A DNA stretch of 32,000 nucleotides from the NCBI RefSeq assembly GCF_000018785.1, contig NC_010163.1:750001-782000 (forward strand). Reading direction: 5' to 3'. Position numbers and translations under genes: made by a program. Below are positions 3,501 to 26,082 of this stretch, one piece after another. Source of the stretch: Acholeplasma laidlawii PG-8A (GTDB taxonomy: Bacteria > Bacillota_I > Bacilli_A > Acholeplasmatales > Acholeplasmataceae). The notes under the pieces are model-generated. The model did no database searches, was not told the origin of the DNA, and saw only the letters and a program-made list of their open reading frames with translations. The stretch's first letter is position 1. The number at the start of each line of letters is the position of its first letter.

Positions 3501-3662
3501 CTCAATACCAAAAGATGCAATTAATTGACCTCTATTGACATAATAAGTCCACATAGGTACGCCATTTTTACCTGCAATACCTGGTAAAAATGAAGCAAAA
3601 GGTTTTAACTTATGATAGTTTTCAAATATAAATTCTTTTGTTTCCTCATTAAAATATGTCAT
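558..3662 (-). CDS. Large cytoplasmic GH94-clan (GH94/GH149/GH161-like) glycoside phosphorylase-like protein; candidate beta-1,3-oligoglucan phosphorylase
   Basis: The ORF track gives 558..3671, but codon 1 there is TTG. The ATG at 3662 (MTYFNEE...) lies 1 nt after the upstream TAA, so I prefer it. There is no signal peptide. The N-terminus YFNEETKEFIFENY...FLPGIAGKNGVPMWTYYVNRGQ, the internal SYRDVNQN and PGWNDAMNGL motifs, and the C-terminal KLTFKVNPKV parallel the RDxxQD, ADWND and C-terminal-domain motifs of GH94 enzymes and of the 830-aa paralog in this window. Exact family and substrate are not determined. Confidence 0.55.
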   Translation of the reverse strand: MTYFNEETKEFIFENYHKLKPFASFLPGIAGKNGVPMWTYYVNRGQLIASFGIENKDHAILDFTPANLSYRNTSVNGFRTFLKVNDQCFEPFGTTDSNRKLFIGRNKVSIEETNNDVQTTVKYFHVTEKKYPGLVRKVQFKALKDMKLSFIDGLATFWPYGTGLYAQKNMSNLAVAWFDVFNQENHIPFMKNRSTTEDTEEISALEAGNFYVSVDQHHKRLKPIYDSSIIFGYQNELAVPHVFNQMPYDEFIRQNQASTNQLLSGFSTHEVHLRKDETYTFYTLLGSYSNLDSLNESARHWDFNYFESLEALSESFIEELVAPMDTQTNYPLFDQYMKQSFLDNLLRGGFPYIFKGLNKDHVYHTYSRIHGDMEREYNNFYIEPRYYSHGNGSYRDVNQNRRNDVYFVKEAGIFNIVQFLELIQLDGHNPLTIEGSRFTFNQKYQNKLLEHVVKGENKLIDYLKKPFTPGSLLMFIENNIETNISPQTLLDLIMYYTDQTTQSSFGTGYWSDHWIYNLDLIEQYLAIFPDKIDFMLFDQPIKFYQSKMSVYPRKYKYVLNKEGFPRQLGGLYEDKEKVKSLDLKQGSNFHKFTNGKTVSVNLYSKLLHLATIKTASLDPMGMGVMMDSEKPGWNDAMNGLPAIFGSGTTETINLARLFKYLIEFSHLFKSKTVSIQSDIYDFFTNLTHHIDDGFDKIQDIRESFDAKTNLYLSDAFVDITIAQLIPLIERLNDYIHRGIKNAFELGKGLIPTYLTFEATTYQKNGLRHPHLNLECIDVTNWKVRPLPHYLEAPAHYLKSMLNVIDAHSVHQHVKASGIYDETLGVYKTSASLEDETLEIGRARAFTKGWLERESSFVHMSYKYLIGMFKSGLYDEFYKDIKTSMPPFMDPLVYGRSTLENVSFIATSNNPNPKVHGQGFVARLTGTTSEAMTLMYLMFLGKQPFSYKENKLTFKVNPKVIKDFFKEGRLSFKFLSHITITIHNPHHVDTFNLNVTHYTLSNQNERIKIQGDSILGEHADDIRNLKYSHIDAYLG

Positions 3663-3663
3663 A

Positions 3664-4557
3664 TTAATCAATTTCCCTTACTAAATTTTGAATTGTTGGT
3701 GATTGATACACTCTAACAAAATCAATTTCCATTTTGGCATAGCTCAATTCAGGATCTATACCTTGAGCTGCACCCCAATCACCACCTATTGCGATATTTA
3801 ATAATAGATGAAAACGTCGATCAAATGGCCAGTGTCTGTTTTTTGGTATATCAACCAAATTAAAAGGATTATAAGTATAATACACTTCGTTATCAATTGA
3901 AAAAATTATCAAATCTGGAAACCATTCAACTGTATAGGTATGAAAAGCTTCACTTGCAGTTGGAATCACTTTAGAACCACCTTTTTGAGTGCCTATTTTG
4001 TGATTATATGCTTGGGTATGGATACTCGCATGAATACGGTTTTGGTCATAACCTACGTGTTCCATGATATCTATTTCACCACTATTTGGCCAACTACCAT
4101 ACTGCCAATCAGTAGGTAACATCCATATTGCAGGCCACGTTCCGCGACCTGTTGGAAGTTTAGCTCTCACTTCAATCTTACCCCACTTCCAATCACCTTT
4201 ATTTCTGGTGACCATACGTGCTGATGTCCAACTTCCTTTTTCATCTTTTATCGCTTCTATGGTGAGTATGCCATCTTTAACAAAGGCGTTTTGATCACTT
4301 GTGTAATTTTGTAGTTCATTATTTCCCCATCCGTGTCCGCCTACATCATAACCCCATTTATCATCATCAGGTAAACCTTCATAATCAAACTCATCAGACC
4401 ACACCAAAGCATAATCAGTAATATTGTCTTTATCATAAGTATAACCTTCAATTTTAGAGCGTTCTACTACAATGGGTGGTTCATCTTCTCTTTTATCACA
4501 AGCAATTAGCAAGGATGTAAACAATAATACACATAATGCAATCACAGTTTTTTTCAT
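3664..4557 (-). CDS. GH16 endo-beta-1,3(4)-glucanase (laminarinase-type), lipoprotein
   Basis: Carries the GH16 catalytic motif GEIDIMEH (E-x-D-x-x-E). The signal peptide has the lipobox LLIAC. The track start at 4566 is GTG; the ATG at 4557 (MKKTVIALC...) has an AGGTGA SD 5 nt upstream and sits 1 nt after the permease stop. Confidence 0.9.
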   Translation of the reverse strand: MKKTVIALCVLLFTSLLIACDKREDEPPIVVERSKIEGYTYDKDNITDYALVWSDEFDYEGLPDDDKWGYDVGGHGWGNNELQNYTSDQNAFVKDGILTIEAIKDEKGSWTSARMVTRNKGDWKWGKIEVRAKLPTGRGTWPAIWMLPTDWQYGSWPNSGEIDIMEHVGYDQNRIHASIHTQAYNHKIGTQKGGSKVIPTASEAFHTYTVEWFPDLIIFSIDNEVYYTYNPFNLVDIPKNRHWPFDRRFHLLLNIAIGGDWGAAQGIDPELSYAKMEIDFVRVYQSPTIQNLVREID

Positions 4558-4558
4558 G

Positions 4559-5686
4559 TTATTCACCTGTCATTCCGGTACGTTCAATACCTGCAATAAA
4601 TTGCTTTTGTGCAACTATATAAATAATAAATAAAGGTAAGATAGACAAGAATGTTGCTGCAGATTTATAACCTTCGTTAATTAAACCGATACCAACATCA
4701 CCTGGTGCACTATTTGCTTGATCTGCAAATATTGAATCAAATAGACTTAATCTCATGACTACAAGCGGATTACCAGATTGATAATAAATAGTTGCTGTAT
4801 AGATATCATTCCAATTCCAAATAAATGAAAATAGAAATACGATTAAAATAATTGGGACAACTAACTTAACATAAATATGCCAAAATACTTGGAATGAAGA
4901 TGCTCCATCAATTCGTGCTGCTTCATCTAATGTAATTGGAATCATTTTAAAGAAATTATAGAAAATTAATATAAGAATAGCTGAGTTGATACCTTGGCCA
5001 AAAAATGAAAATAGTACTTGAGGAATTAGTGTGGAAAATAACGCTCTACTGAAAAATGAACCTAAGAAATTATTAGCAAATAAAGCATCATAAATAGGAA
5101 TCCAAATATTTTCTTGTATACCGCTTATAATCATAATTCTAGGTACTGTGACCATTGGTAGTGGAATAATGAAGGACACTAATAACATCACAAAGAAGAA
5201 TTTCTTAAACTTAAAATTATATCGTGCAAAAGCAAAGCCTGTAAATGCAGCAATAACTGTTTGAATTAGTGCAAGTGTAGTCATGTTAAATAAGCTTTTA
5301 ATCAAGTTACCTGGATTTGTAAATGTACCTAAAAAACGATCGATAAAACTTAAACCTGGTGCAAACCAAGAAGGTGGTAGTAACTGTAGTACATGATTAG
5401 AAACAACAAAGTTACTAAAAGTTAATCCAGTTGGAATCCATGAAACCTCAGGACTTAATAAGTCCTTTCTCGTCATAAATGAGAGTAAAATCATACGAAT
5501 AATTGGAAATAAAAATACATAACTAATACCAATTAATAATACATAGATGACAAGTTTACCGATAACACCACCACTAGCTTTATGCCCAAATAAGTATTTT
5601 CGTATTTTACTTATAGAAATGTGTGAGGTGACTTTTTTAAATAGTAATTTAATTTTACCAAATAGGTCATTCATATATTTAATCAT
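4559..5686 (-). CDS. Carbohydrate ABC transporter permease (pair 1, second subunit), unusually long
   Basis: Polytopic membrane protein with the EAA loop LDEAARIDGASSFQVFWHIY. Its start overlaps the upstream stop (ATGA at 5683-5686). At 375 aa it is longer than typical MalG-like permeases of about 280 aa. Confidence 0.85.
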   Translation of the reverse strand: MIKYMNDLFGKIKLLFKKVTSHISISKIRKYLFGHKASGGVIGKLVIYVLLIGISYVFLFPIIRMILLSFMTRKDLLSPEVSWIPTGLTFSNFVVSNHVLQLLPPSWFAPGLSFIDRFLGTFTNPGNLIKSLFNMTTLALIQTVIAAFTGFAFARYNFKFKKFFFVMLLVSFIIPLPMVTVPRIMIISGIQENIWIPIYDALFANNFLGSFFSRALFSTLIPQVLFSFFGQGINSAILILIFYNFFKMIPITLDEAARIDGASSFQVFWHIYVKLVVPIILIVFLFSFIWNWNDIYTATIYYQSGNPLVVMRLSLFDSIFADQANSAPGDVGIGLINEGYKSAATFLSILPLFIIYIVAQKQFIAGIERTGMTGE

Positions 5687-6690
5687 GACATGTCACCTTT
5701 ATCTTTCTTCTTCTTAAATACACGATCAAACCATTCTTTAAGTGTTTCTTCATCTCTTAATTTCTTCAATTGAACACGATTGATACGTGCGATATGTTTG
5801 AGTTGTTTTTCCTTTAATGTATCTAGATATTTTGTGTCATCTTTAGTTCTTAGAACTAAGAATATAACACCAACAAATGCAAGTACTATCGCAGAATAAA
5901 CAATAACAACTGCAGCAGCAAATCCTAAACCATTCGTATAGTTGGAGTTGATAGTACCGACGACAAATGAGTAAATCGGATTCACTTCAAAGATTGCTAT
6001 TTGTACCACAGTATAAATACCTACAACAAGTCCAGTAGATCTTAAATTTGGTAGCATAATCTTCCATAGCATTTGCCATGAATTAGCACCATCGATTTGT
6101 GCTGCTTCATATAAACTATTATCAATTTTTTGTAAACCATTTAAAAATAATATAATTGGTATCCCTGTAAACCAAAGTATTAATGTAAAATTATCAAAAA
6201 TCGACATTAAAATGTTACTAAAGAAAGGCGAAATATTGTCGATCATCCTAAATATGAGTAATTCTGATATATCCATGAGTTGCATGGTATTAGAACTTCT
6301 TAATTGTGTCATAACAGGTCCACTAATAACAACTACAGGGAAGAAAAATATTAATCTGAAACCCGTTCTAAATTTAATTTTACTATTAAGTAGTATTGCT
6401 AGGATTAAAGATATAACTAAAATCATAGGCACATAAGTAATTTCCATAGAAATAAAGCCTACAACTAACTGGTTAAACTCAGTATTTCTAAAAAATGCTG
6501 TTACATAATTTTCAGTTCCAATAAATGAATATGTCCAACCATAGACGTCTTTAGATACTAAATTAAAACTTAACCAGATTGTATTGATGAATGGATAGAT
6601 AATGAAAAATATCAATCCTATCAACCAAGGAAGTAAAAATAAGTATGCTACATTTTCATTTTTCGGTTTTCTAACCCTTAATTTTGACAT
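5683..6690 (-). CDS. Carbohydrate ABC transporter permease (pair 1, first subunit) with a charged C-terminal tail
   Basis: Has the EAA loop LYEAAQIDGANSWQMLWKIMLP and multiple TM segments, with an AGGAGG SD upstream of the ATG at 6690. About 54 aa of Lys/Glu-rich tail follow the last TM. Confidence 0.85.
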   Translation of the reverse strand: MSKLRVRKPKNENVAYLFLLPWLIGLIFFIIYPFINTIWLSFNLVSKDVYGWTYSFIGTENYVTAFFRNTEFNQLVVGFISMEITYVPMILVISLILAILLNSKIKFRTGFRLIFFFPVVVISGPVMTQLRSSNTMQLMDISELLIFRMIDNISPFFSNILMSIFDNFTLILWFTGIPIILFLNGLQKIDNSLYEAAQIDGANSWQMLWKIMLPNLRSTGLVVGIYTVVQIAIFEVNPIYSFVVGTINSNYTNGLGFAAAVVIVYSAIVLAFVGVIFLVLRTKDDTKYLDTLKEKQLKHIARINRVQLKKLRDEETLKEWFDRVFKKKKDKGDMS

Positions 6691-6702
6691 ACAAATCCTC
6701 CT

Positions 6703-9225
6703 TTAAATAACAAGCTTATAGTTAAGCTTTTCAACGGTTATACCTTTATAGATTACAGTATCTTCTGTGTAGTTAATTACAACTTCATAGCCGTTTGCAT
6801 AGGTATTTACAATAACACCTGGTTGTAGTACGCTTCTACCTACCCACACCTCATTCATCACACTTGCGAGTGCACTGTTGACATCATTATAGATATCTTT
6901 TATCATCTCTTCATATAATGTAAATTCAGTAGAATAATAGTTAGATGAATGTGTTGCAATTAATTTATAGGCAGGATCGTGTGTTAATACAAATGATGGG
7001 AATGTATTGTAGTCTATCATTCTTAATACATCTTTTTGTTGGTAGAATGAGAAGTTTGAATAGGTCGCATAATTCTCCATAGCACCATTCAATACCAATT
7101 GTAAGAATGGTACAGTATCAGTTTCAACAAGGTGTTGAGAACTAAATAGGGGTGTACTTAAATGTCTATCAACGTATGGCCATAAATACATATTAGGCAT
7201 GATGGCATTAATCTTTGTTGATGCATCAATCTTAGTAAAAGTATCTTCATAAAGTTTTATTGTATCTGTAACAGTAGTAATATTTTCATTACTTCTATAA
7301 TGGCTATACAAGAGGTTTGAAATGCCATCATAAGTATAACTTTCAAAGCCCATTTTAGAGGTCTTATTATAAGTATTTAAGACCCATGATGATGCTCTAT
7401 TAGGTGTAGCATAATACTGCTTTTCTACCGGGCCAGTTGTTCTTCTATAGTTATATTCACTATACCAACCTCCGATATGTTTCATCGCATTATCTATTAA
7501 GAACATATTTTCAGAGTAAATTGTTGTATAGTCTTGATGTAAGGATACATCGATACCAAGTTCATTTAGATACTTAACTGTTTGAGTAAATTTAGATTTA
7601 CTACCTATTGAATCACTCCAATTAGGGCTTGATTTTCGACCGAGAGTTACACCACCTTTTTGGTAACCGAGTAACCCTGAATTAATATTATAGACACCTT
7701 CATTTTGTAATGTTTCTAAAATCTTTTTTACTTCATCAATTGTTGTAACAACAACATCTTCTGTTCCGATTAATGCATTTTTTGCATCACTCATTAAGAA
7801 GTCAATTCTCATTGGAATATTTATAAACTGTTCATTTTTATAACTTAATACGCCTGATTCATGTAAATAATCACGATATTTAATTGCCATACCGACATAA
7901 TCTGCGCGATAAGGGTTATCTAGAGTTGTACCATCTCCTGCAAGCATATAAAAATGTTGATGGATGTCAAAGTGATTTCTTTCCTCAAATAAGGACTGAT
8001 AGCTTGCTCCAGACTGATTATAAACTTGAGTATAGACTCGATTATATAGATATCTTGAATGTGCAATCATATAATCAGTTAAGTTATAGGCATCACTTGA
8101 GTTAGATGGTCTAGCATATATTTGCATATACTCATCACCACTACTAGTGTGTGATAAAAATGCTGCTTGAGTTCCATCGCCATAAGAGATACCAAATACT
8201 GGCATAGATGGATCTTTATGAGGTATAAAATTGGGTTCTGTGCGGCTATGTGATGGTAATTGTGCAATATCTTGTCCATATACATGACCAGTATAACCAT
8301 TTAATGAGGATTGGTAATCTGTAAAACGGATTAATGCGCCACTTCCATCTGGAACGAATATGTAGCCTTCATTTCTAGGTTTATTGACTACCGTGTCCCA
8401 CTTTACTTCTTTTTCTGTTATTGTGCCTTCTTCGGATTCAAAGGTTTCAGTATGTACACTTGGTAAAGAAATCTTACCACCGTAAGAACCCATAAAAGGT
8501 GCGATGGAGATTGATCCAATTAAATCTGTGTCATCTCCCTCAATTTCGCTATCTCTAATTTCAATAGAAAATCCATCTAAAGTTAAATGTAGATGTACCT
8601 TAACCTCTACATCAATGGCTTTAAATTTAAAATCAAGTCTAAAATGGTTAGGATCGTTGTTTACATTCTTTAAAACGTCCGTATTCACAGAATTAGATAC
8701 ACGTTCTTGAACTGTTTCTATTTCAGGATTGTTTAAATCTGGTGCAATAATGAAGTTCTTTGTACTACTTCCTGTTTGTGTTAAAGGACGATTTGGACTT
8801 AAGCGATTGAGATATTCAATCATGATTAAAGAGTTTGCAATACCTTCTCTAGAGTTGTTCATTTGTTCCTCTAAAGGTTTTGCAATAGCTAATATGTCTT
8901 CATCTGATGCACCTGGATTATTTTTAATAAATAATTCTACAGTACTTTCAATGTAACCATCATAGTCATGATCAATACCACTTTTCCAAGTAAAACCGTT
9001 TCTTTTATCATAGACAGCAAATATACCATTATGTTTTTTATAATAGTATTCAAAGTTGGCATTTTCTTGAATGAGTGTAAAGCCATCCTTATTTAGTGGT
9101 ACGATTACGACTTCATCAGGTGGCATTTTAGTATCTTTACTAGATTCAATATATACCGCATTCACCGTGAAACCAAGTAATATAACGATACAGATTACTA
9201 GAATAGTTCTTTTAATTGAAAACAT
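6703..9225 (-). CDS. 840-aa membrane-anchored extracytoplasmic protein of unknown function (I suspect a DUF5696-type family; unverified)
   Basis: Has a single N-terminal TM (ILVICIVILLGFTVNAVYI) and then about 810 aa that are predicted to lie outside. I see no catalytic signature I can name. A GGAG SD lies upstream, and the start overlaps the upstream stop by 14 nt. The family assignment comes from memory of similar gene neighbourhoods, not from a search. Confidence 0.6.
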   Translation of the reverse strand: MFSIKRTILVICIVILLGFTVNAVYIESSKDTKMPPDEVVIVPLNKDGFTLIQENANFEYYYKKHNGIFAVYDKRNGFTWKSGIDHDYDGYIESTVELFIKNNPGASDEDILAIAKPLEEQMNNSREGIANSLIMIEYLNRLSPNRPLTQTGSSTKNFIIAPDLNNPEIETVQERVSNSVNTDVLKNVNNDPNHFRLDFKFKAIDVEVKVHLHLTLDGFSIEIRDSEIEGDDTDLIGSISIAPFMGSYGGKISLPSVHTETFESEEGTITEKEVKWDTVVNKPRNEGYIFVPDGSGALIRFTDYQSSLNGYTGHVYGQDIAQLPSHSRTEPNFIPHKDPSMPVFGISYGDGTQAAFLSHTSSGDEYMQIYARPSNSSDAYNLTDYMIAHSRYLYNRVYTQVYNQSGASYQSLFEERNHFDIHQHFYMLAGDGTTLDNPYRADYVGMAIKYRDYLHESGVLSYKNEQFINIPMRIDFLMSDAKNALIGTEDVVVTTIDEVKKILETLQNEGVYNINSGLLGYQKGGVTLGRKSSPNWSDSIGSKSKFTQTVKYLNELGIDVSLHQDYTTIYSENMFLIDNAMKHIGGWYSEYNYRRTTGPVEKQYYATPNRASSWVLNTYNKTSKMGFESYTYDGISNLLYSHYRSNENITTVTDTIKLYEDTFTKIDASTKINAIMPNMYLWPYVDRHLSTPLFSSQHLVETDTVPFLQLVLNGAMENYATYSNFSFYQQKDVLRMIDYNTFPSFVLTHDPAYKLIATHSSNYYSTEFTLYEEMIKDIYNDVNSALASVMNEVWVGRSVLQPGVIVNTYANGYEVVINYTEDTVIYKGITVEKLNYKLVI

Positions 9226-11254
9226 TTCTAATCAACTCCTTAATAATTGCATCTAAGAATAGATAGAGTTGTTGCCACATGGTGATGATGATGATTAAGA
9301 CAACAACAATGATAATTGCAAACAGTAAACTCATAAATATACTTCGTATGGTTTCCTTACCAGAATATTCATGTATTTCACTAATGCCTAGATAAATTAA
9401 TATGAACGACCAAATGGTGCCAAAAGTCATTATAAAATCTAAGAAAAAGACTTCATTATATGTAAGTACGTGTGATAGTAGTGTAACGAGTAATAAAGCT
9501 AAGAATAAAGGTCCTAGAGCATATACAAACATCATAAAGATCTGTTTAAGTTTACCGATACCATCATTAATTGATGTATCTAAATAATTACAGATTACAA
9601 ACAATAAGGTTACTGCTGTAAACCCTAAAACAAGTGCAGTGATATCAATATCTTCTACTAATATGTATTGATAGATGAACCCTTTAGATGTATTAAAGAA
9701 AATAAAGGTGATAAAGATAGCTACATATAAAATGAGTGTGGCTCTAAAAGAACCTTGATGTCCATGTTTTAAGTCTTCAAAACTATCGATTGGTTTTCTC
9801 ATGACTTTAAACATGAAACTTAATTCTCTTAAGATAGGTTTATCAAATGATTTTTTAATCGGTTGTGTGAATTGAGTTACTTTACCTGTTTTTTTATCTA
9901 CTTTATGTAATACTAAATTACTAAAGTAAATAAAGATAAGTGCAATAATAAATATACCTAAATAACTTTGTATCACAAGATTTCTAACTTCCCAGGATGC
10001 TTCTGAATAACCTGTACGATTACCTGCAAGTTCAAAATGATGCATTGCAGATTCATAATCCTGTAACTGTAGATAAGATTTTGCAATGTTATTATGAGCA
10101 ATCACAGACATTTGATTTAAATTAAGTACTTCGCTCCATGCATCAATAGCTTCTTGGTATAATCTGTCTTCATATAGATTAATAGCTCTATATATTTCTT
10201 TTGCATATGCGGTTGGTTCAAAGGATTGTAGAAATGATTTTGCATCATCTAAGGCAAATATAACACCATCATCTCGTACTGCAATCGAAGAAAGTCTTTG
10301 GAAGACACCAGAGATATCTTGATTTGAGGAGATATCAGAGTTACTTGCACCAAAATAGAAAATAAAATCACCGGTTTGATCATATACAAATATAGCACCT
10401 GATTGCATACCGGCATATACGATACCTTCTTTGTCAACATAAATATCTCTTGCATCATCAAAAGATATCATACGTTTGAAAATATTACCGCCTTGTGTGT
10501 TATGTTTTTTAACAGCATTGAAATAAGTACTCATCGTTGTAGTATAAACCATCGAGTTATCGTCGATAAATATGCTTGAGAATGTTTGTGGACTTCTCGC
10601 AAGTAAATTATCAAACTGTTCTGGTGTTAGTATGAGTTTTTGAAATTGTTGAACGACTGAAAGTCTGATTTTATTTGTTGTGAAAAATCCTAAGAATTCA
10701 CCAATGTTAGATAATTGGATAATACCGTTTGAAACACCTTCACCATAGATATATAAATTTCCGCGATTATCCACTGCGATTTTACTTGGTTCAAAACTCG
10801 TTTCACCAAATGATAAGGAATCCGGACGTTCAAATTTTTCAATAAAAGTACCATCAAGATCAAATCTAAAAACTGCTTTAGCTGCACTATCTGCAACATA
10901 TAATCCACGACTGGAAATATATAAACCTTTAGGTGCTAAAAATTCAGGATAGGTCAGTTCGAATAATAACTCATTTGTTACTGAGTCATATTTTAAAATA
11001 CGCATATTTCCAGTATCGGCTATCCATAAAAACCCATCATCATCAAACATCATATCTTCTGGTTTGTTTAAATTTAATTCCATTGTAGTTCTTAGTGGTA
11101 AATACGCATCTTGAGTTCTTACAAACTCGCCCTTCGCATTTAAAGTCAACGTATAACTTGTAGCTGCTGATGCAAATACTGGTGTGGCGTATATGACTAT
11201 GAATGCAACTATGAATAGTAAAATTGTAATTATTCTTTTAGTATTTTTCATCAT
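9212..11254 (-). CDS. Signal peptide - NHL-type beta-propeller - TPR - TM - Yip1-like 5-TM domain fusion protein
   Basis: Signal peptide ending VFASAAT. Repeated blade motifs are present (DGFLWIADTGNMRILKYD, RGLYVADSAAKAVFRFD, RGNLYIYGEGVSNGIIQL, EGIVYAGMQSGAIFVYD, DGVIFALDDAKSFLQSF). A TPR-like segment (YQEAIDAWSEVLNLN...AKSYLQLQDYESAMHHFELAG) follows. Then come one TM, a basic linker and five further TM helices in a Yip1-like arrangement. Confidence 0.7.
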   Translation of the reverse strand: MMKNTKRIITILLFIVAFIVIYATPVFASAATSYTLTLNAKGEFVRTQDAYLPLRTTMELNLNKPEDMMFDDDGFLWIADTGNMRILKYDSVTNELLFELTYPEFLAPKGLYISSRGLYVADSAAKAVFRFDLDGTFIEKFERPDSLSFGETSFEPSKIAVDNRGNLYIYGEGVSNGIIQLSNIGEFLGFFTTNKIRLSVVQQFQKLILTPEQFDNLLARSPQTFSSIFIDDNSMVYTTTMSTYFNAVKKHNTQGGNIFKRMISFDDARDIYVDKEGIVYAGMQSGAIFVYDQTGDFIFYFGASNSDISSNQDISGVFQRLSSIAVRDDGVIFALDDAKSFLQSFEPTAYAKEIYRAINLYEDRLYQEAIDAWSEVLNLNQMSVIAHNNIAKSYLQLQDYESAMHHFELAGNRTGYSEASWEVRNLVIQSYLGIFIIALIFIYFSNLVLHKVDKKTGKVTQFTQPIKKSFDKPILRELSFMFKVMRKPIDSFEDLKHGHQGSFRATLILYVAIFITFIFFNTSKGFIYQYILVEDIDITALVLGFTAVTLLFVICNYLDTSINDGIGKLKQIFMMFVYALGPLFLALLLVTLLSHVLTYNEVFFLDFIMTFGTIWSFILIYLGISEIHEYSGKETIRSIFMSLLFAIIIVVVLIIIITMWQQLYLFLDAIIKELIRNVFN

Positions 11255-11259
11255 ATCAC

Positions 11260-12135
11260 CTACTTAATCCCTGCATGAGCCATAGTGTTCATAACCCTAG
11301 ACTGCATAATGATAAAAATAATTAAATTCGGTAAGAACATTATTAATCCGGCAGCTGCAGCCATACCAACACCTGCTAGTGCAGAACCTGTGTTTGCCAG
11401 TGCTAACGTATTTAAATAAAATGCAAAGGACTTCATAGATTCATCCTGAATGTATAAATTAGATGCTTCAACTGCTCCCCATGTAGCTTGAAAGGTTAAA
11501 ATAGCTACTGTCGCAATCGCATTTTTAGTGAGTGGATAGATTATTTTAAATAGGATCTGAAAGTCATTTGCCCCATCGATTCTTGCAGCTTCAATTAATG
11601 CATCTGGAACTTGATCAATAAACTGTTTCATTAAAAATACATTCACTGGTACTGCTAAATAAGGCAGTATATGAACAAGTGGATTATTATTCAAACCAAC
11701 TTGAACAATAATAAAATAAGTTGGAATCACAACTGCTGTTCTAACAAACATTAGGGCAGTTTGATTTAAACCAAATAACGCCTTTTTAGCTCTGAAGTGT
11801 TTCTTTGATAGCACATAGCCTGTCATGACACTTAAAAATATTGTTAAAAATACAAGAATGATTGTTACTACCAGTGTATTAAATAAGTATCGGATTAAAG
11901 GAACCCCGGTAGATGTAGCTGTTCTAAAGAGTTCAGTAAAATTTCCGAAAGTAGGATTTTGAACAAAGAATCTTGGAGGAAATAAGAATAATTCATCTAA
12001 AGGTTTAAATGCTTGATTAATTATAAATAGTACAGGAAGTAACATAAATATAGCCATCGGAAGCAAGATTAGATAAAAAGGGATTTGTGATTTAGAAAAA
12101 CTCGTTGGATTTATTTTAGTTCCTTGAAAACTCAT
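11260..12135 (-). CDS. Carbohydrate ABC transporter permease (pair 2, MalG-like)
   Basis: EAA loop LIEAARIDGANDFQILFKIIYP, six predicted TM segments, and an AGGAGGGGTGA SD upstream. Confidence 0.9.
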   Translation of the reverse strand: MSFQGTKINPTSFSKSQIPFYLILLPMAIFMLLPVLFIINQAFKPLDELFLFPPRFFVQNPTFGNFTELFRTATSTGVPLIRYLFNTLVVTIILVFLTIFLSVMTGYVLSKKHFRAKKALFGLNQTALMFVRTAVVIPTYFIIVQVGLNNNPLVHILPYLAVPVNVFLMKQFIDQVPDALIEAARIDGANDFQILFKIIYPLTKNAIATVAILTFQATWGAVEASNLYIQDESMKSFAFYLNTLALANTGSALAGVGMAAAAGLIMFLPNLIIFIIMQSRVMNTMAHAGIK

Positions 12136-12150
12136 ATCATCACCCCTCCT

Positions 12151-13080
12151 TTAATCTTTTTCCGCAAATAAGCGGTATGCTATTTTAGAAAATACCCATA
12201 TTAGTAAAAGTAAAACTACTGATAATGCCGCAGCATAGCCCATTTCATAGCGAATAAATCCAAAATCATCAATATGGTTTGTGATTAGCTGTGCTGCATT
12301 TTGAGGTGTTGGATTAGATCCAGATAATGCAACGCCAATATATCCGTTTGTGAAAGTTGCCACGATCGCCATAACAGCTCCGAATAACATTTGAGGTTTC
12401 ATCATTGGTATTGTTACATAGACAACTTCTTGAAATTTATTACGAATCCCTTCAATATAAGCTGCCTCATAAAGTTCTTCATTCCCATTTAATATACCAG
12501 CCAACATTGCTAAAAACCCTACACCCATACTACTCCATAGAGCAACTACGATAATAATTGGCATTAAATATTGTGGTGATTGTAGAAACTGTATCGGTCG
12601 GTCCAATATATTCATATCCATCAAAATAGCATTAATATAACCGGATTCATCACCTGAAAAAAGTGTACGCCAAACAACTGAAATAAATACTCCACCTACC
12701 ATGGAAGGTGAATAAACTGCCAGTGCAATGATCGTTCTTGGTACTACTTGTATTTGTGCGAGCATCCATGCAAGTAGGAAAGATAGCATGTAGCCACCTG
12801 GTCCAACAATTAGTGAAAACATTAATGTATTTGGTAAAATATATTTTAAAAATACTGGGTCTTGTGTAAATATATTAATGAAATTTGTTAATCCCAAGTA
12901 TTGAGGCATTTCAATTACATTAAAGGATGTTAAAGATAGGTAAATTGCAATTGCTACAGGAAATGCTATAAATAAACTAAATAACAAGACATAGGGTAGT
13001 AACATGAAAAATACTGTGAGGCTATCTTTAAACTTTGCATTTTTGAAAAATACATTTTTACGCTTAATCGTTTGATCCAT
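12151..13080 (-). CDS. Carbohydrate ABC transporter permease (pair 2, MalF/LplB-like)
   Basis: EAA-like loop [23 protein letters not shown]. The track start is 13098, but the ATG at 13080 (MDQTIKRK...) is preceded by an AGGAGG SD at 6 nt spacing, so I prefer it. It overlaps the upstream stop (13064) by 17 nt. Confidence 0.85.
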
Positions 13081-16054
13081 GATAGCCTCCTGATGCATCT
13101 AACATTTGATTTCTAACCCATGTAATATCTCTAATTACATATGGTTTTATTAGGTTTCCTTCATTATCAAGAAAACCAAATTCAATCATTTTCTTTCGCA
13201 TTTCTCTGTTTATTAAAATGGTATATCTGTCTACAGCAATACCTGTAGGTGTTCCATCAAACACTGCTGTATTCCATATATCTGAAATCGATCTTTCTAA
13301 CATATATTGACCAGGTGTTCTCGGTACATCTATTAACCATTTAATTTGTTCTAAAATTACTTCTTTATCTTTTTCGGAAAAAGGTGATGCCATAAATGCA
13401 TTAATATTACCAGAAATCCATGCATAAGTAGGTCCATAAGTAGACTGTAAATTAAATGAAAATTGTGATTGAGTTTCAGTTGACATCCACCACTTTAAAA
13501 AATCCCATGCATCATCAGGTTGATCAGTTTCATTCATAATCATACCTGCTGTACCATTAGCAATATAGTGACGGTTCGTACCAGCTGCTTCAGTAGTTAT
13601 ACTAGGATAAGGTGCTATTTCCCACATCCCAGTTAATTCAGGTGCAGCATTTTTAATAAGTTGATAAGTTCCAAAGTCCGCGATTCCAATTGGTAGTGTT
13701 GCATATCTAAATGAATTATAAAATGAAACTACTTGCTCAGGTAAAGCATAGTTTGTAAATAATTGATTTAAGAAAGTTAAACCTTGAACGGCTTCTTTTT
13801 CATTAATACTTGTTCTTAAGCCATCTTCAGAGTAAATATTACCACCAAATTGATATATAAACCCAGAGGTTTGATAAAACCACTTAATTGCAGTTCCACC
13901 TGCAATTGGATGGTAGAAATTCATACCATACTTTTGTAATTCAGGTAGAATTTGAATCACTTCTTCCCATGTATCTGGTACCATAAAATTTAAAGCATCA
14001 AATATATCTTTTCTATACATGACAACATTAAAGTCCAAAGTTTCAGGTAATGCATAAGCTTTATCATTTAAAATATAAGGAACAAATGCGCCTGGTGCAA
14101 ATTGTGATGCGAATTCCCAATAATCATCAAAACTGGTTAAGTCATACGCTGAATTTCTAATTGCTAAGTCAAAAGGCATATAACTTGCTAGTCCTAGTGC
14201 AACATCCGGCTGTTGATTTGCAGCAGATGCCATAACAAGTTTATTTGCATCAGGCATTACTGAAATCTTAACTTGAATACCAGTTTGAGGTGTAAATGTT
14301 TGATCTGCCATCTTTTGCATCATATCTACATAAGTTATGGGTCTGTTTACCCAAACATCTAAAACACCATCTTCTTTAGTTAAGGCATATTTATTCGAAC
14401 TAAAACTTGCGATAAATGATTGTGTTCCAGCATAAAGTGATTCAAAAATATTCGGATTTGCCTTTCTCAATCGCGTGTTATTATATAAATGCAATTGATT
14501 CAAATACATTTGTTGATTATTTAGTGTATCTAAAATATCACCTAAAAATTGATTAATAGAGCCAGTTCCCCCAACAAGATCCTCTAAATATAATGGCAAT
14601 CTATTGTAATCTTTATAGATGTTTTCTGCTCTTGATAATGATTTTTGAAGGTTACTAATTGTTGCTGATTTTGCACCATTTGGTGCAAACAAACTGAGTT
14701 CATCAATACTAGCCTTTAGAAGTAAGATATAACTTTCCAAATATGCCTTAGATTCAGGCATTTGTTCACTAAATCTCCAAGTTCTATTCTTATCAACTTC
14801 TTTACCTGTAATTTTTCTGATTTCCAAAGTAAATGTATTGATATGATCTATAAGCATTTGTATGTTTCTAACAGCTTCTTGAACGGGTTCGCTTTCCGCT
14901 CTTAAAGTAATTGTATTTTTACCTGATTGGAAATAAAAATAGTAATCTGTTTGTTCATTGCCCAATGTTTCTACGCGCCAATTGCCTGCTTTTGTAGATT
15001 TAAACTGGTATGCTCTTACTTCATTAAACGGAATCTGTCCATTAATTTTAATAGATCTAAAAACAGGAAAATCAGCTTTAGGATTAGAATATCTAAATGC
15101 CAGTTTATAAAGGCCTGATTTTTCTACGTTGACTTCATAGGTTAAAGATTGACCTGGACGTTGCCAAGTTCTTCCGTCAATTACATTTAACTTTTTATAA
15201 ACTGGGTCAAAAGGTAAAACACTAGGATTTACCTCACTGTATGCTTGTACATAACTTGAGTTTTTATAACTATAATTGGTTGCATCTATATCAATAATTC
15301 CATCAATAATCTCATAGTTGTTTTGGTTAATATATGTATCGTAGTCGATTTGTAAAACAGGTTTAAATACATCAATATCTCCTATTATAAATTTAGAGGA
15401 GGATGTATTTTCAATGGTTAGTTGATTTAAACCTTGTTTAAAATAAAATAAGAGTGGATCAATAGAAATATAGGTATTATTATATGCAGCTACATACTGC
15501 CAATCATCCATAATTATTTGATTTGGCAACACTTCATCACCATAGCGATCTGTCAGATAATTTTTTGACTCATCTTGCCAAATGATAGGTAGTTCGATAG
15601 TCTGCATTTCTTGATAATAACTTTCATCATTAATTTTTAGTGCAATAGTAATTTGATTCAGTGTAGCATTCGATACTTTATAGTTCATACCTACATGATA
15701 ATAACCAGCTTCTTGTATTTCTATTTCGTAAGTAGCTATTTTATCTTTTGTCATTATCAAACTATATTGCATATTCTCTGAATCTATTAATGCATCAGAG
15801 TTTGTTAAACTTGCTGTAATTGTACTTAAGCCATAATCAACATTTTGTTGATGATCGCTTAAATAATCGACATACGTATATCTTGCATTATTAATGGATG
15901 CATTTAATAGTGTTTTTGTTTCTGAAACTAAATCATTTGTTATAGTTCCATCTGGCTTATAAATTGAAGTACCTCTTGTAAAGTAAATGATAGCAAAAAC
16001 TAATAAAACAGTCGCTAAACCCCAAACAATAGATCGTTTAATTTTACCCATCAT
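13064..16054 (-). CDS. Membrane-anchored tandem CBM-like / helical linker / solute-binding-protein fusion (996 aa)
   Basis: N-terminal TM ([17 protein letters not shown]). Two internally repeated beta-sandwich-like modules follow: aa ~95-230 ([21 protein letters not shown]...[14 protein letters not shown]) and aa ~250-390 ([21 protein letters not shown]...[17 protein letters not shown]). A helical stretch of about 170 aa comes next. From about aa 560 there is a family-1-type sugar SBP domain ([21 protein letters not shown]...). A GGGAGG SD lies upstream. Confidence 0.75.
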
Positions 16055-16083
16055 GATAAAAAACCTCCCTTTTTCATTATGAA

Positions 16084-16107
16084 GGCACCAAACAATTGTC
16101 TAGTGCC
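16084..16107 (-). promoter_or_regulatory. Intercistronic RNA stem-loop between the SBP gene and the downstream transporter genes
   Basis: The minus-strand RNA GGCACUAGACAAUUGUUUGGUGCC folds into a 10-bp stem (8 Watson-Crick pairs plus 2 G-U) with an AAUU loop. On the plus strand the two G-U pairs become C-A mismatches, so the structure is specific to the transcribed strand. There is no U-tract, so it is not a strong terminator. Confidence 0.5.
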
Positions 16108-16133
16108 AACATAATAAAGATTACTAAAATTTA

Positions 16134-17765
16134 TTATTTAAAATCAGCGTCTGTCTTGCCGTAATGTGTTTTAAGTCCGGCTTTCAACTTAGCCCATTCA
16201 TCAGCAAATCTTTGGTTTACCTGTGTATTCCATTCAGGCAACTTAGCTAATACAGCATTTGTAAATCCAGCATCTGTACGACGTGGAGAAGTAGCTTCAG
16301 GGTTACCAGTTAAGACGGTTGGTAAGTTAAAGTTATTCCATTCATATAGAATTTCAGATCTTACACCATCTTTATCGTAATACCAAGGGTAAGCTTTATC
16401 AGAGACGTCAATAACTTTACCTGATGAGAATACTTCCATCATATAGTGGAAACCAGGGAATTGTTCTTTATCTGCAAGCATTGTATGATTTTCTGCAGAG
16501 AACCAAATATCCATTTGACGTTCAAATGCAGCACCAGTTACTAGAGGTACAGAGTCATTCATAGCAGTTTTAACTGTAGCACCATTTGTATACATTTGGT
16601 CAGCTCTTGCTTGCCATGCACGGTCATCACCAATCCAGAATGATGCAAATGTATAAGCAATTTGTAATTTATTAAATTCTTCATCAGATAATTCTGAATT
16701 ATTATCATCTAAAGCATAATTATGAATTGCAAGTGGGTCAAGTACTACACCTACTGTATTATCAACGTAATCTGTACTAGGTCTTGGATAAATATCCCAA
16801 TTGTTTGATTGAACAGCACCCCAATGTAATGGATCAGGGTTTGCAGCATCACCTAACATCCAAGGATCTCCATCAAGTGTTAATAATGCACCATTTTTAA
16901 AGAAGTTGAAACTCCACCAACCATTAGCATCCATAAATGGAGCCATTGGGTCGCCTACTTTATCAAATTGTGGCCATACTGAGTGTTCTGACCATTCAGC
17001 GATATAAGGAATTAATGATCTAACTTGTGCAGAATTAAGATCAATATATGGATCATTTCCAGTATGATTAACAAGTGATTGTGCCATTGTAGTTGATCCT
17101 GTGAATATAAAACTCTTTGGAGTATCCATAGAACCATACCAAGAATTAGCTACAGAATGGCTAACAAAGTCTGTATATTCATCAATTGTCCAATCTGGAT
17201 CAGGAATATCAATATTGTTATCATCTGCTAATTGCTTATTGATATATACGCCCCAAGGTTGTAAGAATTGTGGTAAACCAGCTTGAACTCCATAGTAATT
17301 CATCATGCTCATAATACCTTTATTAAATGATTTATACATAGGGTCATCACTAAATACAGATAAGTCTGATACCATACCACGTTGAACTTCACCAGGTAAA
17401 TCTGTTGATGCCCATATATCAATTGTTTTACCATGTTCTAAAATGAAGTTTTCTCTAAACTGAGACCAACTCACACCATCATCATGTGGACCATTGACTT
17501 TAGTGATAACATTGATCTTAACATTTGGATAATCTTTGTTAAACTCTTTAGCTACTGCATAAATAGTTGCAGCATTTTGAGAGACTAACTGATCAGGTGT
17601 TAGATTTTTCTTACCGATATCTTGGTAGAATTCTCCGTCTCCTGACCACAACATAATTGTAATTTCACCACTAGCCGCTTTATCTAATCCTTTATAACTA
17701 GGACCACAAGCTACTAATAGTAATACTACCATTGCAAGTAAACTTGAAACAAAAATCTTTTTCAT
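16134..17765 (-). CDS. Extracellular sugar-binding lipoprotein (ABC transporter SBP, long ~540-aa class)
   Basis: Signal peptide with the lipobox LLLVAC. The composition is aromatic- and Trp-rich, as in SBPs. It is the first gene after a promoter, with an AGGAGGA SD at 17771-17777. Confidence 0.85.
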   Translation of the reverse strand: MKKIFVSSLLAMVVLLLVACGPSYKGLDKAASGEITIMLWSGDGEFYQDIGKKNLTPDQLVSQNAATIYAVAKEFNKDYPNVKINVITKVNGPHDDGVSWSQFRENFILEHGKTIDIWASTDLPGEVQRGMVSDLSVFSDDPMYKSFNKGIMSMMNYYGVQAGLPQFLQPWGVYINKQLADDNNIDIPDPDWTIDEYTDFVSHSVANSWYGSMDTPKSFIFTGSTTMAQSLVNHTGNDPYIDLNSAQVRSLIPYIAEWSEHSVWPQFDKVGDPMAPFMDANGWWSFNFFKNGALLTLDGDPWMLGDAANPDPLHWGAVQSNNWDIYPRPSTDYVDNTVGVVLDPLAIHNYALDDNNSELSDEEFNKLQIAYTFASFWIGDDRAWQARADQMYTNGATVKTAMNDSVPLVTGAAFERQMDIWFSAENHTMLADKEQFPGFHYMMEVFSSGKVIDVSDKAYPWYYDKDGVRSEILYEWNNFNLPTVLTGNPEATSPRRTDAGFTNAVLAKLPEWNTQVNQRFADEWAKLKAGLKTHYGKTDADFK

Positions 17766-17807: not shown

Positions 17808-17836
17808 ATTATATCACCTTATGAAAACGATTACAA
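17808..17836 (-). promoter_or_regulatory. Sigma-A-type promoter of the transporter operon
   Basis: In the gene orientation: TTGTAA (17836-17831), a 17-nt spacer, then the extended -10 TGATATAAT (17816-17808). It lies about 40 nt upstream of the SBP ATG. Confidence 0.55.
17822..17835. promoter_or_regulatory. cre-like / LacI-family-type operator overlapping the -35 and spacer
   Basis: TGAAAACGATTACA matches the cre consensus TGWNANCGNTNWCA at every specified position. Its reverse complement contains AATCGTTTTC. Confidence 0.55.
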
Positions 17837-17938: not shown

Positions 17939-19420
17939 TTAATTTTCGTTACTAATATTTTCGTTTAAAACAAATGTTGTAGTTGCTTTTGCTGGTAGTT
18001 TATAATTCATTTGGCTACCATTTATATCTAAACTAAACATCATTGAATTAGAAGATTTATTATGTACCACGACTGTAATACTACCATCAGGGTTTAAAAA
18101 TGCTGTGTTTAGTAAATTTGCATTACTTGTTTTACTATCTATTCTATATGCTCCAACCTCTACAAATTTAGAAAAATGTCCGATCATATAGTATTCTTCA
18201 TTTTTAATAACCTCTGAAGTTTCACTATGAATAGTTAAAATGCCACGGCAATTTTGGCACCCACCATTGATAGGTCCATTGTTTTCATTTAAGGCAATGT
18301 TCCACATCAATACACCTTTAGCGCCGCGATTTAGAGAACCCATAAAAATATTTTCCATATTCCACGATATATTGTCTCCAAAATTCGTAGCCCATAAACC
18401 ACCGGATATTTCTGTGAACCAAATACCTTTATCAGGAAATATGTTACCTAATCTTGAAGTTTCTGATACATTTCCACCATAACCATGTAATGCAACCCCT
18501 GCAATATATTGATTTGCTTTACTATTTAGTACAGTTATTGGGTAGTCCATTCGATCCCAATTATGGTCATATGCCATGATTAATGTATCGATATTGGCTT
18601 CATTAAATTGGATGCCCATAGACTCAATTAAATTTATTTGTTGATCTGGCAACATTTTCATTGTAGGATAAGTGTTTGATTCATGAAGTGGTTCATTTTG
18701 CGGTGTAACTGCATATATATCGATGCCTTGAAGCTTCATAGCTTCAATATATTTAACAAAATATTGTGCATAGACATCGATGTACTTATCCAGTAAACTA
18801 CCACCATTAAGGTGTTTATTATCTTTCATCCAAGCTGGTGCACTCCATGGAGATGCCATAATAAATAGGTCGTTATTTCTTATGAGTGCTTCTTTTAAAA
18901 CTGGTATAAGATGTTGCATCTCTCTATCGATAGAAAAGTTATTTAATGCTAAGTCTTCTATGTTACTTGGCGTATCATTATACGTATAATTGTCTAAGGA
19001 AAAGTCAGATGCACCTATAGTAAGTCGCATAAATGACATATTTAACCCTTCTTTGTTAAATAGTTCATCTAATACATTATGTTTATCATTTTCATCCAAA
19101 TTATTAATGACTAAAGCACTAGATTCTGTCATCGCTGCTCCAAAACCATCAATTACTTGGTATTTTATACTAGGATCAATATTGATTTTTGTGTACTCTG
19201 AATCTAAATCTATAGTGGTATTTGAAGCCTCTTCTTTTTTAAGTAATTTGCTTTTATCAGCCCATGTTGTAAAGCTATCCACTGAATAAGTTTTTTTCAC
19301 GATAGGGGGTTCTCCATTATTCGTATTATCACATGCAATAAGCATCATTAAACATATACACACTAAGCATAACAAGAAGATACGCTTATGTATCTGTGTG
19401 CTAGCTTGTAACTTTAACAT
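17939..19420 (-). CDS. GH30 family glycosidase (beta-1,6-glucanase / glucosylceramidase-like), lipoprotein
   Basis: GH30 landmarks are present: IDGFGAAMTESSA near the N-terminus, TPQNEP (acid/base Glu) and GIWFTEISGG (nucleophile Glu). The lipobox is MLIAC. The ATG at 19420 overlaps the upstream gene by 20 nt. Confidence 0.85.
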   Translation of the reverse strand: MLKLQASTQIHKRIFLLCLVCICLMMLIACDNTNNGEPPIVKKTYSVDSFTTWADKSKLLKKEEASNTTIDLDSEYTKINIDPSIKYQVIDGFGAAMTESSALVINNLDENDKHNVLDELFNKEGLNMSFMRLTIGASDFSLDNYTYNDTPSNIEDLALNNFSIDREMQHLIPVLKEALIRNNDLFIMASPWSAPAWMKDNKHLNGGSLLDKYIDVYAQYFVKYIEAMKLQGIDIYAVTPQNEPLHESNTYPTMKMLPDQQINLIESMGIQFNEANIDTLIMAYDHNWDRMDYPITVLNSKANQYIAGVALHGYGGNVSETSRLGNIFPDKGIWFTEISGGLWATNFGDNISWNMENIFMGSLNRGAKGVLMWNIALNENNGPINGGCQNCRGILTIHSETSEVIKNEEYYMIGHFSKFVEVGAYRIDSKTSNANLLNTAFLNPDGSITVVVHNKSSNSMMFSLDINGSQMNYKLPAKATTTFVLNENISNEN

Positions 19421-20111
19421 AATCGATTAAAAATTCTACTGGGAAAATTGAGTCATCTATTTTACCGCCCCAGTTACCACCTATCGCCAAATTAATTATC
19501 ATGAAAAACGGTTCATCAAACGGCCAATTATCTAACCCTTGCTTATCTTCTTTAGGTGCTTTAAATAATAGTTCATTATCTAAATAATAATTAAAACCTT
19601 CTTTGGACCATTCTAGTTTATAGACATGAAAATCATCACTCAAGTTTTTAATTTCTTTTTTTAGATGTAGATTGTTTGATTTTGTATGATTGAAGTTTTT
19701 AGAGTGTAATGAAAAATGTAATGCGTCCGGTTCTTTACCTACATATTCCATCAAATCAATTTCACCACAAGTTGGCCAACCAACTTTATGAATATTATCC
19801 CCCAACAACCAAAATGCTGGCCAAGTTCCTAATCCCTTTGGTAACTTCATACGCACTTCAATTGCTCCGTATTGAATACTCACTTTATTTTTTGTAGTTA
19901 TTTTCGCAGATGTATATTTTCGATGTTCAAAATCTTCTTTACGAGCCACAATATGTAGTAGGCTATCCTCTATATAAATGTTATCTAAGCGGTCTGTGTA
20001 AAACTGATCTTCATTGTTTCCAAAACCACTACCACCAACATCAATATTCCAGTATGTTTGATTAGGTTTTGTTCCTACATCAAAATGATCATAAAAAACT
20101 ATTTTTTTCAT
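19401..20111 (-). CDS. GH16 endo-beta-1,3-glucanase without a signal peptide (predicted cytoplasmic)
   Basis: Carries the catalytic motif GEIDLMEY. The N-terminus MKKIVFYDHFDVGTKPNQTYW has no hydrophobic leader. There is an ATGA overlap with the upstream cupin gene. Confidence 0.85.
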   Translation of the reverse strand: MKKIVFYDHFDVGTKPNQTYWNIDVGGSGFGNNEDQFYTDRLDNIYIEDSLLHIVARKEDFEHRKYTSAKITTKNKVSIQYGAIEVRMKLPKGLGTWPAFWLLGDNIHKVGWPTCGEIDLMEYVGKEPDALHFSLHSKNFNHTKSNNLHLKKEIKNLSDDFHVYKLEWSKEGFNYYLDNELLFKAPKEDKQGLDNWPFDEPFFMIINLAIGGNWGGKIDDSIFPVEFLIDYVKVTS

Positions 20112-26059: not shown

Positions 26060-26082
26060 GTCATATCTCCATATCAATAATT

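Follow-up and report, generated by a model that had tools for sequence, protein, structure and literature searches.

The stretch of DNA analyzed here, referred to as the window, comprises 32,000 nucleotides (nt) of the Acholeplasma laidlawii PG-8A chromosome (contig NC_010163.1, positions 750,001–782,000), with a G+C content of ∼31%. Between positions 4559 and 17765 it contains eight open reading frames (ORFs), all on the minus strand, which form a cassette of transport and accessory genes. Read along that strand, they encode a lipoprotein solute-binding protein (SBP1), a second, larger solute-binding protein (the big SBP), permeases A and B (permA and permB), an accessory protein combining NHL, TPR, and Yip1 domains (the Yip1 protein), a second accessory protein of the DUF5696 family, and permeases C and D (permC and permD). 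An initial reading made from the letters of the DNA (the sequence-only reading) had placed eight genes at these coordinates and in this order; all were found on the minus strand, and the ORF map bears out the position of the accessory pair between the two permease pairs. Pfam profiles show that its domain calls were correct for the families it named. Coordinates of all features are collected in Table 1.

The genes of the cassette are closely packed. A gap of 79 nt separates the two SBP genes, after which the big SBP gene overlaps permA by 17 nt, permA and permB are 15 nt apart, 5 nt separate permB from the Yip1 gene, the Yip1 and DUF5696 genes overlap by 14 nt, DUF5696 lies 12 nt from permC, and permC overlaps permD by 4 nt. 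The three overlaps had been recognized previously (13064/13080, 9212/9225, and 5683/5686), as had the permease A start at 13080, which is supported by an AGGAGG 7 nt upstream. A Shine-Dalgarno sequence precedes every component gene, and a consensus scan revealed no convincing terminator inside the cassette. The eight genes had been described as a single operon; they are co-oriented, but the transcription unit is probably larger than eight genes; the minus-strand run comprises 15 complete genes, from 26077 to 558, and a 16th, at 1–553, that crosses the left edge of the window. In the topology predicted by a hydropathy scan, the propeller, the TPR region, the body of DUF5696, and both SBPs face outward.

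The same arrangement recurs in other genomes. One genome per species was scanned with a DUF5696 alignment, which matched at least 560 loci; the best 80 of these (26%–46% identity) were kept, and ORFs called in them were searched with the proteins of the window. The eight-gene order is identical in all 80 related loci, being complete in 65 and, in the remaining 15, cut by contig ends or accompanied by gene fusions. Direct search recovers all eight genes in 48 of the 80, and seven genes together with a diverged upstream SBP in 17. An iterated SBP profile search found the second SBP in 58 of 59 evaluable loci, a result that Pfam confirmed. In 57 of these it lies immediately upstream, in locus L075 it follows permD, and only locus L070 has none. 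Six of six further look-ups, two from the Yip1 side (Anaerotaenia torta and Haloplasma contractile) and four from DUF5696 representatives, also gave the same cassette. Across loci, the median junctions within the cassette range from −14 to +12 nt, with ∼80 nt between the SBP genes, and stop/start codon overlaps are usual at the Yip1/DUF5696 and DUF5696/permC junctions. Carriers include Acholeplasmataceae, Izemoplasmatales, Erysipelotrichia, Lachnospiraceae, Eubacterium, Roseburia, Defluviitaleaceae, Vallitaleaceae, Oscillospiraceae, Bacillaceae (Sutcliffiella and Metabacillus), Treponema, Thermotogota, and Anaerolinea. The DUF5696 profile itself matches 4601 clusters (50% identity) at E values up to 0.001 and 2614 at E values up to 1e-30. 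The sequence-only reading had proposed that the adjacency was not accidental. With the gene order kept in 80 of 80 related loci, the association is far beyond chance, and each locus examined joins the accessory genes to a giant SBP and to permeases in pairs. We take the cassette to be conserved both vertically and horizontally.

The sequence-only reading had named no motif in the 840-residue accessory protein. Pfam matches it over its full length to DUF5696 (PF18952), with 502.7 bits against a cut-off of 25.6 (E = 2e-150), covering model positions 3–612. An AlphaFold2 (AF2) model built with 30 homologs has a predicted local distance difference test score (pLDDT) of 84 and a predicted TM-score (pTM) of 0.85. 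It consists of an N-terminal transmembrane anchor, a β sandwich, a (β/α)8 barrel beginning at residue ∼440, and a C-terminal β sandwich. A Foldseek search of the PDB with this model returns as its top match ZgGH129 (5opq), of glycoside hydrolase (GH) family 129, with an E value of 4e-25 and a target-normalized TM-score of 0.68. The GH129 enzyme NagBb (∼1e-20) and GH101 (about 1e-14) come next, with GH36 and GH31 at lower ranks (∼1e-11 to 1e-10). The predicted fold and domain order thus correspond to those of GH129 and GH101 (E = 4e-25 to 1e-13, probability 1.0, TM-scores 0.68–0.70), at a structural-alignment identity of only 8%–12%. We take DUF5696 to be a probable glycan-processing enzyme.

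Sequence conservation within the family was assessed across 77 DUF5696 sequences. Positions D293, D480, D703, and D738 are acidic (Asp/Glu) in 77 of 77, N724 is invariant, and D475 is acidic in 75. Conserved clusters comprise GYxxVPDGSG, ADYVGMAxxY, RxDFxxxD, ETDTVPF, and YxNFS. The spacing of D703 and D738 (35 residues) resembles that of D764 and E796 (32 residues), which are mutated in GH101 PDB entries, a likeness that is suggestive only. In Izemoplasma-type orthologs, a CBM_4_9 module is inserted in DUF5696, which fits with this protein touching glycan. ACL_0720, which by accession order would be the DUF5696 protein, was detected in vesicle proteomics of A. laidlawii (PMC4947986), suggesting that the protein is made. 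The PG-8A protein was first named “ABC-type transport system, substrate-binding component,” and this name has spread to genomes such as that of Herbinix; the vesicle proteome table lists ACL_0720 under it.

The other accessory protein begins with a signal or anchor segment, followed by an NHL propeller of the six-blade type (residues ∼30–345), a TPR region (∼350–420), a transmembrane helix, a cytoplasmic loop, and the Yip1 domain (∼500–660). Its transmembrane map comprises the N-terminal signal or anchor and six further segments. The propeller is identified by sequence, with an NHL match of 38.3 bits against a cut-off of 20. The Yip1 match (PF04893) scores 54.2 bits against a cut-off of 28.6 and spans model positions 1–172 of 173, and five hydrophobic segments between residues 502 and 657 account for the five-transmembrane Yip1 domain. 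The closest solved propeller is the extracellular sensor domain of PknD (1rwi, E = 2e-10); propeller designs match at E = 2e-14. This architecture is conserved among the 120 homologs listed. Within the protein, the best-conserved stretches belong to the ectodomain and to the outer face of the membrane, and the cytoplasmic loop is conserved least. The Yip1 transmembrane region also holds the conserved polar residues D564, N600, and E601. Source names for the fusion protein conflict, and include sugar lactone lactonase YvrE, streptogramin lyase, DUF1282, TPR repeat protein, and integral membrane protein. We regard the lactonase and lyase names as annotation carried over from the propeller fold. 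A precedent for a Yip1 domain working with an ATP-binding cassette (ABC) transporter, though one of another class, is the Yip1-family protein YknW of Bacillus subtilis, which as an accessory subunit modulates how the YknXYZ exporter is assembled (PMC4887032).

The four permeases form two pairs, each with the two BPD_transp_1 subunits and EAA loops of a type-I importer. An EAA-type loop is visible in all four translations, and BPD_transp_1 matches score 24.5 bits for permease A (below the Pfam cut-off), 50 bits for permease B (E = 3e-13), 25.6 bits for permease C, and 32.9 bits for permease D; two of the four fall 1–2 bits under the cut-off. Permease C has a charged, cytoplasmic C-terminal tail of ∼55 residues (window 5683–5850, minus strand). 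Elsewhere it carries N-terminal extensions of 300–570 residues, charged and coiled-coil-like or acidic and proline-rich, with no family match (L070:12701–14400 and L021:12125–13010; likewise in L084). The long extensions in L070 and L021 were considered as fused SBPs, which would have tied an SBP to C/D, a possibility we rejected, as they are charged, low-complexity, cytoplasmic segments with no SBP signal. In locus L055, permC and permD are naturally fused into a protein of 875 residues (L055:12867–15494), in keeping with a paired action of C and D.

No ATPase is encoded among the window proteins. This is ordinary for such importers, because their ATPases are known to be shared: in Bacillota, one MsmX-type ATPase serves many CUT1 importers. 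By motif scan, a single UgpC/MalK-type ATPase gene lies 3′ of permD in 5 of the 80 loci (L025, L028, L035, L042, and L045), and in four of these five the adjacent ATPase scores above the NCBIfam subfamily cut-off. As only one ATPase gene is present in those five loci, both permease pairs would use the same ATPase.

Both SBPs match the SBP_bac_1/8 class and so provide the MalE-like binding protein of a type-I importer. SBP1 carries a signal sequence with a lipobox Cys; its SBP_bac_1 match (26.5 bits) barely exceeds the cut-off, and its PDB matches to sugar SBPs are weak. The big SBP is tethered by a single N-terminal transmembrane helix (anchor at residues 2–26). In its AF2 model (pLDDT 80) this helix is followed by short helices, β sandwiches at 79–230 and 252–387, a helical bundle at 389–512, and a MalE-type domain at 517–990. 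The top Foldseek match of the latter is the β-1,2-glucooligosaccharide SBP of Listeria innocua (5ysb, E = 5e-16), followed by MalE-type oligosaccharide SBPs. The protein had been described as a fusion of two carbohydrate-binding modules (CBMs) with an SBP. The two β sandwiches and the SBP domain are present in the model, but there is an additional helical bundle between them, and the CBM assignment stays under the Pfam threshold (CBM_35, 16.8 bits against a cut-off of 28). CBM_35 is matched in 6 of 30 homologs of the big SBP (best E = 1.8e-6), and homologs also match Golvesin_C and GH115_C, likewise β-sandwich modules. We consider the CBM-CBM-SBP description of the 996-residue protein reasonable but unproven. 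Records of the big SBP from some A. laidlawii strains give it 719 rather than 996 residues (proteins P0532 and P0535). The difference may stem from a frameshift or from another choice of start codon, or the protein may be genuinely truncated and lack the N-terminal β sandwiches.

Co-evolution was used to ask which components work together. Pairwise-distance matrices were compiled for the eight proteins from 39 complete loci and the window, the shared phylogenetic signal was removed by regressing each pair on the average of the remaining six proteins, and rank partial correlations were calculated. The expected partners, which serve as positive controls, gave 0.65 (permC-permD) and 0.50 (permA-permB). 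DUF5696 correlates with permC (0.64), permD (0.57), and the Yip1 protein (0.54), and the Yip1 protein with permC (0.42) and permD (0.32), whereas values for DUF5696 against permA or permB are about −0.3. In a taxon bootstrap, the preference for C/D over A/B (difference in correlation) was 0.56–1.06 for DUF5696 and 0.08–0.68 for the Yip1 protein. These correlations support, without proving, a putative functional unit in which DUF5696 and the Yip1 protein are joined with permeases C and D.

The cassette lies within a larger locus for β-glucan catabolism (Table 1), the context that had been proposed for it: GH3, GH94, GH16, GH30, and GH161 genes surround it in the window, and related genes flank it elsewhere. 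Downstream, the GH3 lipoprotein gene at the window edge starts at ∼553, 4 nt past the GH161 stop. Upstream, the GH16 gene that has no signal peptide presumably encodes a cytoplasmic endo-glucanase; its 3′ end and the beginning of the GH30 gene share 20 nt. The 132-residue ORF beside it has no Pfam match and no homolog in the 80 related loci. The GH94 protein, ABX81345 (ACL_0729 by accession order), is the laminaribiose phosphorylase characterized by Nihira et al., as cited in PMC6484121. The cytoplasmic GH3 protein, encoded by the first gene of the locus, has permuted domains (C-terminal domain 37–270, Fn3-like 324–399, N-terminal catalytic domain 522–779) and a tail of ∼250 residues with no family match. 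The glucan locus is bounded upstream by a strong terminator and, right after it, a promoter-like site.

Table 1. Features of the window, with the cassette genes first and the surrounding locus below
Feature	Position	Strand	Basis
SBP1, 543-aa lipoprotein solute-binding protein	16134–17765	−	SBP_bac_1; lipobox LLVAC
Big SBP, 996 aa	13064–16054	−	SBP_bac_1/8; AF2 model
Permease A, MalF/LplB-like position	12151–13080	−	BPD_transp_1; EAA loop; 6 transmembrane segments
Permease B, MalG/UgpE-like	11260–12135	−	BPD_transp_1; NCBIfam UgpE/MalG-like
Accessory protein 1, NHL/TPR/Yip1, 680 aa	9212–11254	−	Pfam NHL, TPR, Yip1
Accessory protein 2, DUF5696, 840 aa	6703–9225	−	Pfam PF18952
Permease C, MalF/UgpA-like	5683–6690	−	BPD_transp_1; UgpA/GlcT-like; EAA loop
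Permease D, MalG/GlcU-like	4559–5686	−	BPD_transp_1; GlcU/MalG-like
Promoter-like site TTGTAA-17-TATAAT with TG	17808–17836	−	173-nt gap 5′ of SBP1; consensus scan only
GH3 lipoprotein gene, 5′ part	1–553	−	Lipobox VSC; GH3 N-domain motif YGVDAVHGHNN
GH161 β-1,3-glucan phosphorylase, cytoplasmic	558–3671	−	E = 2e-213 to solved GH161 9qqk
GH16 laminarinase-type lipoprotein	3664–4557	−	Pfam GH16, E = 5e-23; lipobox
GH30 lipoprotein, probable β-1,6-glucanase/glucosidase	17939–19420	−	Pfam GH30, E = 2e-44; lipobox
GH16 with no signal peptide or transmembrane segment	19401–20111	−	Pfam; hydropathy scan
132-aa ORF between GH94 and signal-less GH16	20108–20506	−	Few-base overlaps with both neighbors
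GH94 laminaribiose phosphorylase, 830 aa	20496–22988	−	Pfam GH94; identical to PG-8A ABX81345
Cytoplasmic GH3, first gene of locus	22994–26077	−	Pfam
Terminator, 14-bp stem, after DsbA-like gene	26178–26146	−	Consensus scan only
Promoter-like site before first GH3 gene	26133–26106	−	Consensus scan only

Homologs of GH16, GH161, GH3, GH30, or GH94 flank 54 of the 80 related loci, with a GH16 gene next to the cassette in 42 and GH161 in 26. The most distant cassettes (Metabacillus, Sutcliffiella, and Anaerolinea) are flanked by PF10091 proteins (the family of the GH144 β-1,2-glucanases, among others), an SOGP-type 1,2-β-oligoglucan phosphorylase, GH3, GH35-like proteins, and a LacI regulator. 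These most distant cassettes, in L072, L074, and L077, lie in apparent β-1,2-glucan loci. The flanks of L026 comprise GH5 and a GtaA-type six-hairpin enzyme; in one further locus, GH30 genes accompany a large surface protein with CBM_4_9. As the flanks vary in glucan linkage, the cassette would be a portable β-glucan uptake module rather than a laminarin-specific one.

Considered together, these observations make it reasonably probable that the cassette is the core of a β-glucan oligosaccharide uptake system, built from two CUT1-like type-I ABC importers and a conserved accessory module. In the process we envisage, the surface lipoproteins GH16, GH30, and the GH3 at the window edge would cut laminarin outside the cell, as their families and lipoboxes suggest. 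The big SBP would hold glycan near the membrane by its two CBM35-like β sandwiches, and from its MalE-type domain oligosaccharides would pass to one of the permease pairs. The simplest choice is A/B, encoded directly after the big SBP; SBP1 may be a second receptor. Both permease pairs of A. laidlawii would be driven by a shared MalK/MsmX/UgpC-type ATPase encoded elsewhere. DUF5696, as a glycan processor, would act as a unit with the Yip1 protein and permeases C/D, a step to which the fold, the gene coupling, and the co-evolution all point. The Yip1 domain may serve as a platform in the membrane, holding DUF5696 and the propeller next to C/D such that products are captured at the mouth of the transporter. 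Imported oligosaccharides would then be degraded in the cytoplasm by the GH161 and GH94 phosphorylases, GH3, and GH16. A bolder version of this proposal is possible, and we offer it tentatively: an enzyme-coupled ABC importer, in which DUF5696, as a new GH family, and the propeller are mounted on C/D via Yip1, and the trimming of β-glucan is mechanically coupled to import, forming a Gram-positive and wall-less counterpart of “selfish” Sus uptake. The sequence-only reading had proposed a surface complex for glycan capture, threading, or processing in a Gram-positive or wall-less cell. A. laidlawii is indeed wall-less, and while what had been observed at the locus is confirmed, this interpretation is supported in part.

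A number of results weigh against the uptake proposal and the part it gives to the accessory module. Pfam searches at E values up to 10 give no sequence link between DUF5696 and any GH family, and its profile finds no sequence match among solved PDB structures within the same limit. All of its nearest folds are α-glycosidases, yet the locus targets β-glucans, and the barrel segment 560–676, a frequent site of catalytic residues in such enzymes, is weakly conserved. By co-evolution, preference of the SBPs for either permease pair is not significant, and permA and permB evolve more slowly than the other six proteins, which may inflate the signal. The loci were sampled via DUF5696 similarity, down to 368 bits only, so that deeper members of the family may differ in context. 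Finally, a full-text search found no paper on DUF5696, this Yip1 fusion, or the cassette, and no functional characterization of the two accessory proteins, in line with the sequence-only reading.

The main rival reading is that the conserved order reflects adjacency only, with two independent importers, each with its own SBP, a separate surface enzyme, and a lectin or anchor being co-regulated but forming no complex. Each component does have its own Shine-Dalgarno sequence, two SBPs and two permease pairs suffice for two full importers, and enzymes and transporters are commonly interleaved in utilization loci. However, the strict internal order is kept across phyla while the flanking enzymes change completely, stop/start overlaps are usual at the Yip1/DUF5696 and DUF5696/permC junctions, and the co-evolution of DUF5696 and the Yip1 protein with C/D is no weaker than that between C and D. 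We consider this explanation rather unlikely. A weaker rival, and in our view an improbable one, is that DUF5696 is a dead glycosidase-like receptor that replaces the SBP for permeases C/D. Its gene occupies the usual place of an SBP, with genes for a MalF-like and a MalG-like permease following it in that order, the first annotation of the protein was as a substrate-binding component, its central barrel region is weakly conserved, and locus L070 has no second SBP. Such a replacement is difficult to reconcile with the second SBP in 58 of 59 evaluable loci, or with the conservation, such as an active site would show, of four carboxylate positions and N724 throughout the 77 sequences. In addition, we know of no type-I importer that uses a receptor other than an SBP.

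That the cassette instead exports or remodels cell-surface glucan, or mainly acts as a sensor, is hardly credible. The similarity of the NHL propeller to the PknD extracellular sensor domain and the association of YknW with an exporter could be read in this way, but SBPs and EAA-loop permeases of the BPD_transp_1 family are components of importers, and the flanking genes encode catabolic enzymes and LacI regulators. Moreover, the Yip1 protein has no cytoplasmic signaling domain, its cytoplasmic loop being the least conserved part.

β-glucans such as laminarin, yeast and fungal glucans, and β-1,2-glucans are major carbon sources in the sea, the soil, and the gut, and their capture by Gram-positive or wall-less bacteria is much less understood than the Sus paradigm of Bacteroidota. 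The cassette is widespread, its carriers ranging from gut Lachnospiraceae such as Roseburia and Eubacterium to lineages of the rumen and the sea, and it is conserved yet apparently never studied. Our literature search found no paper on Yip1 in connection with SBPs or glycoside hydrolases, nor transcriptomic evidence covering the cassette genes for Bacillus weihaiensis, Lachnospiraceae, or C. phytofermentans on laminarin. Should DUF5696 prove to be an enzyme, it would found a CAZy family of its own. Should it and the Yip1 protein be importer subunits, the known architecture of type-I ABC importers would be widened and a role provided for bacterial Yip1 domains. The cultivable carriers among Bacillaceae (Sutcliffiella and Metabacillus) make the question directly testable, and the answer would be of interest to the fields of CAZymes, gut and marine glycans, and ABC transporters.

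The A. laidlawii locus has been described before, as two adjacent clusters termed “GH161” and “GH94” (Kuhaudomlarp et al., 2019; PMC6484121). The accessible part of that paper notes GH161, GH16, GH3, and GH94 genes, permeases, and an SBP, reports the GH3 gene next to GH161, and does not mention the DUF5696 and Yip1 genes. Nor does that part report the eight genes as one cassette conserved across phyla, in which the present description differs. The modeled DUF5696 shares its three-domain architecture, sandwich-barrel-sandwich, with the retaining α-glycosidases of GH129 and GH101 (ZgGH129, NagBb, EngBF, and SpGH101). In contrast to these, it is membrane anchored, and its context is β-glucan rather than α-GalNAc or carrageenan. 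The Yip1 protein resembles the YknW of YknWXYZ in being a polytopic Yip1-domain protein that is encoded with an ABC transporter and proposed to act on transporter assembly. YknW, however, has no propeller or TPR ectodomain, and its partner YknYZ belongs to the MacB-type exporters and works with a membrane-fusion protein, whereas the partner in the cassette would be a type-I importer.

A likeness to the Sus-like systems of Bacteroidota had been suggested previously. It holds as a functional analogy, since surface binding and endo-enzymes, oligosaccharide import, and intracellular breakdown are combined in one locus, but not as membership: Pfam finds no match to SusC/SusD-type families among the window proteins, and the cassette has ABC importers in place of a SusC/SusD pair, an outer membrane, and TonB dependence. 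Among the closest known systems are the CUT1 importers of Gram-positive utilization loci (MalEFGK2, MsmEFGK, LplABC, and the L. innocua β-1,2-glucooligosaccharide importer). Like these, the cassette has pairs of MalF-like and MalG-like permeases with EAA loops, a MalE-type SBP domain that is structurally nearest to the Listeria Sop-binding protein, and surroundings of GH and phosphorylase genes, and it would likewise rely on a shared and often unlinked ATPase. In contrast to these, it fixes two permease pairs and two SBPs together, its transmembrane-tethered SBP carries two β sandwiches and a helical bundle, and the DUF5696 and NHL/TPR/Yip1 ectoproteins are inserted between its permease pairs. 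Glycan utilization loci based on ABC importers are known; what is added here is a conserved accessory module and a doubled transporter.

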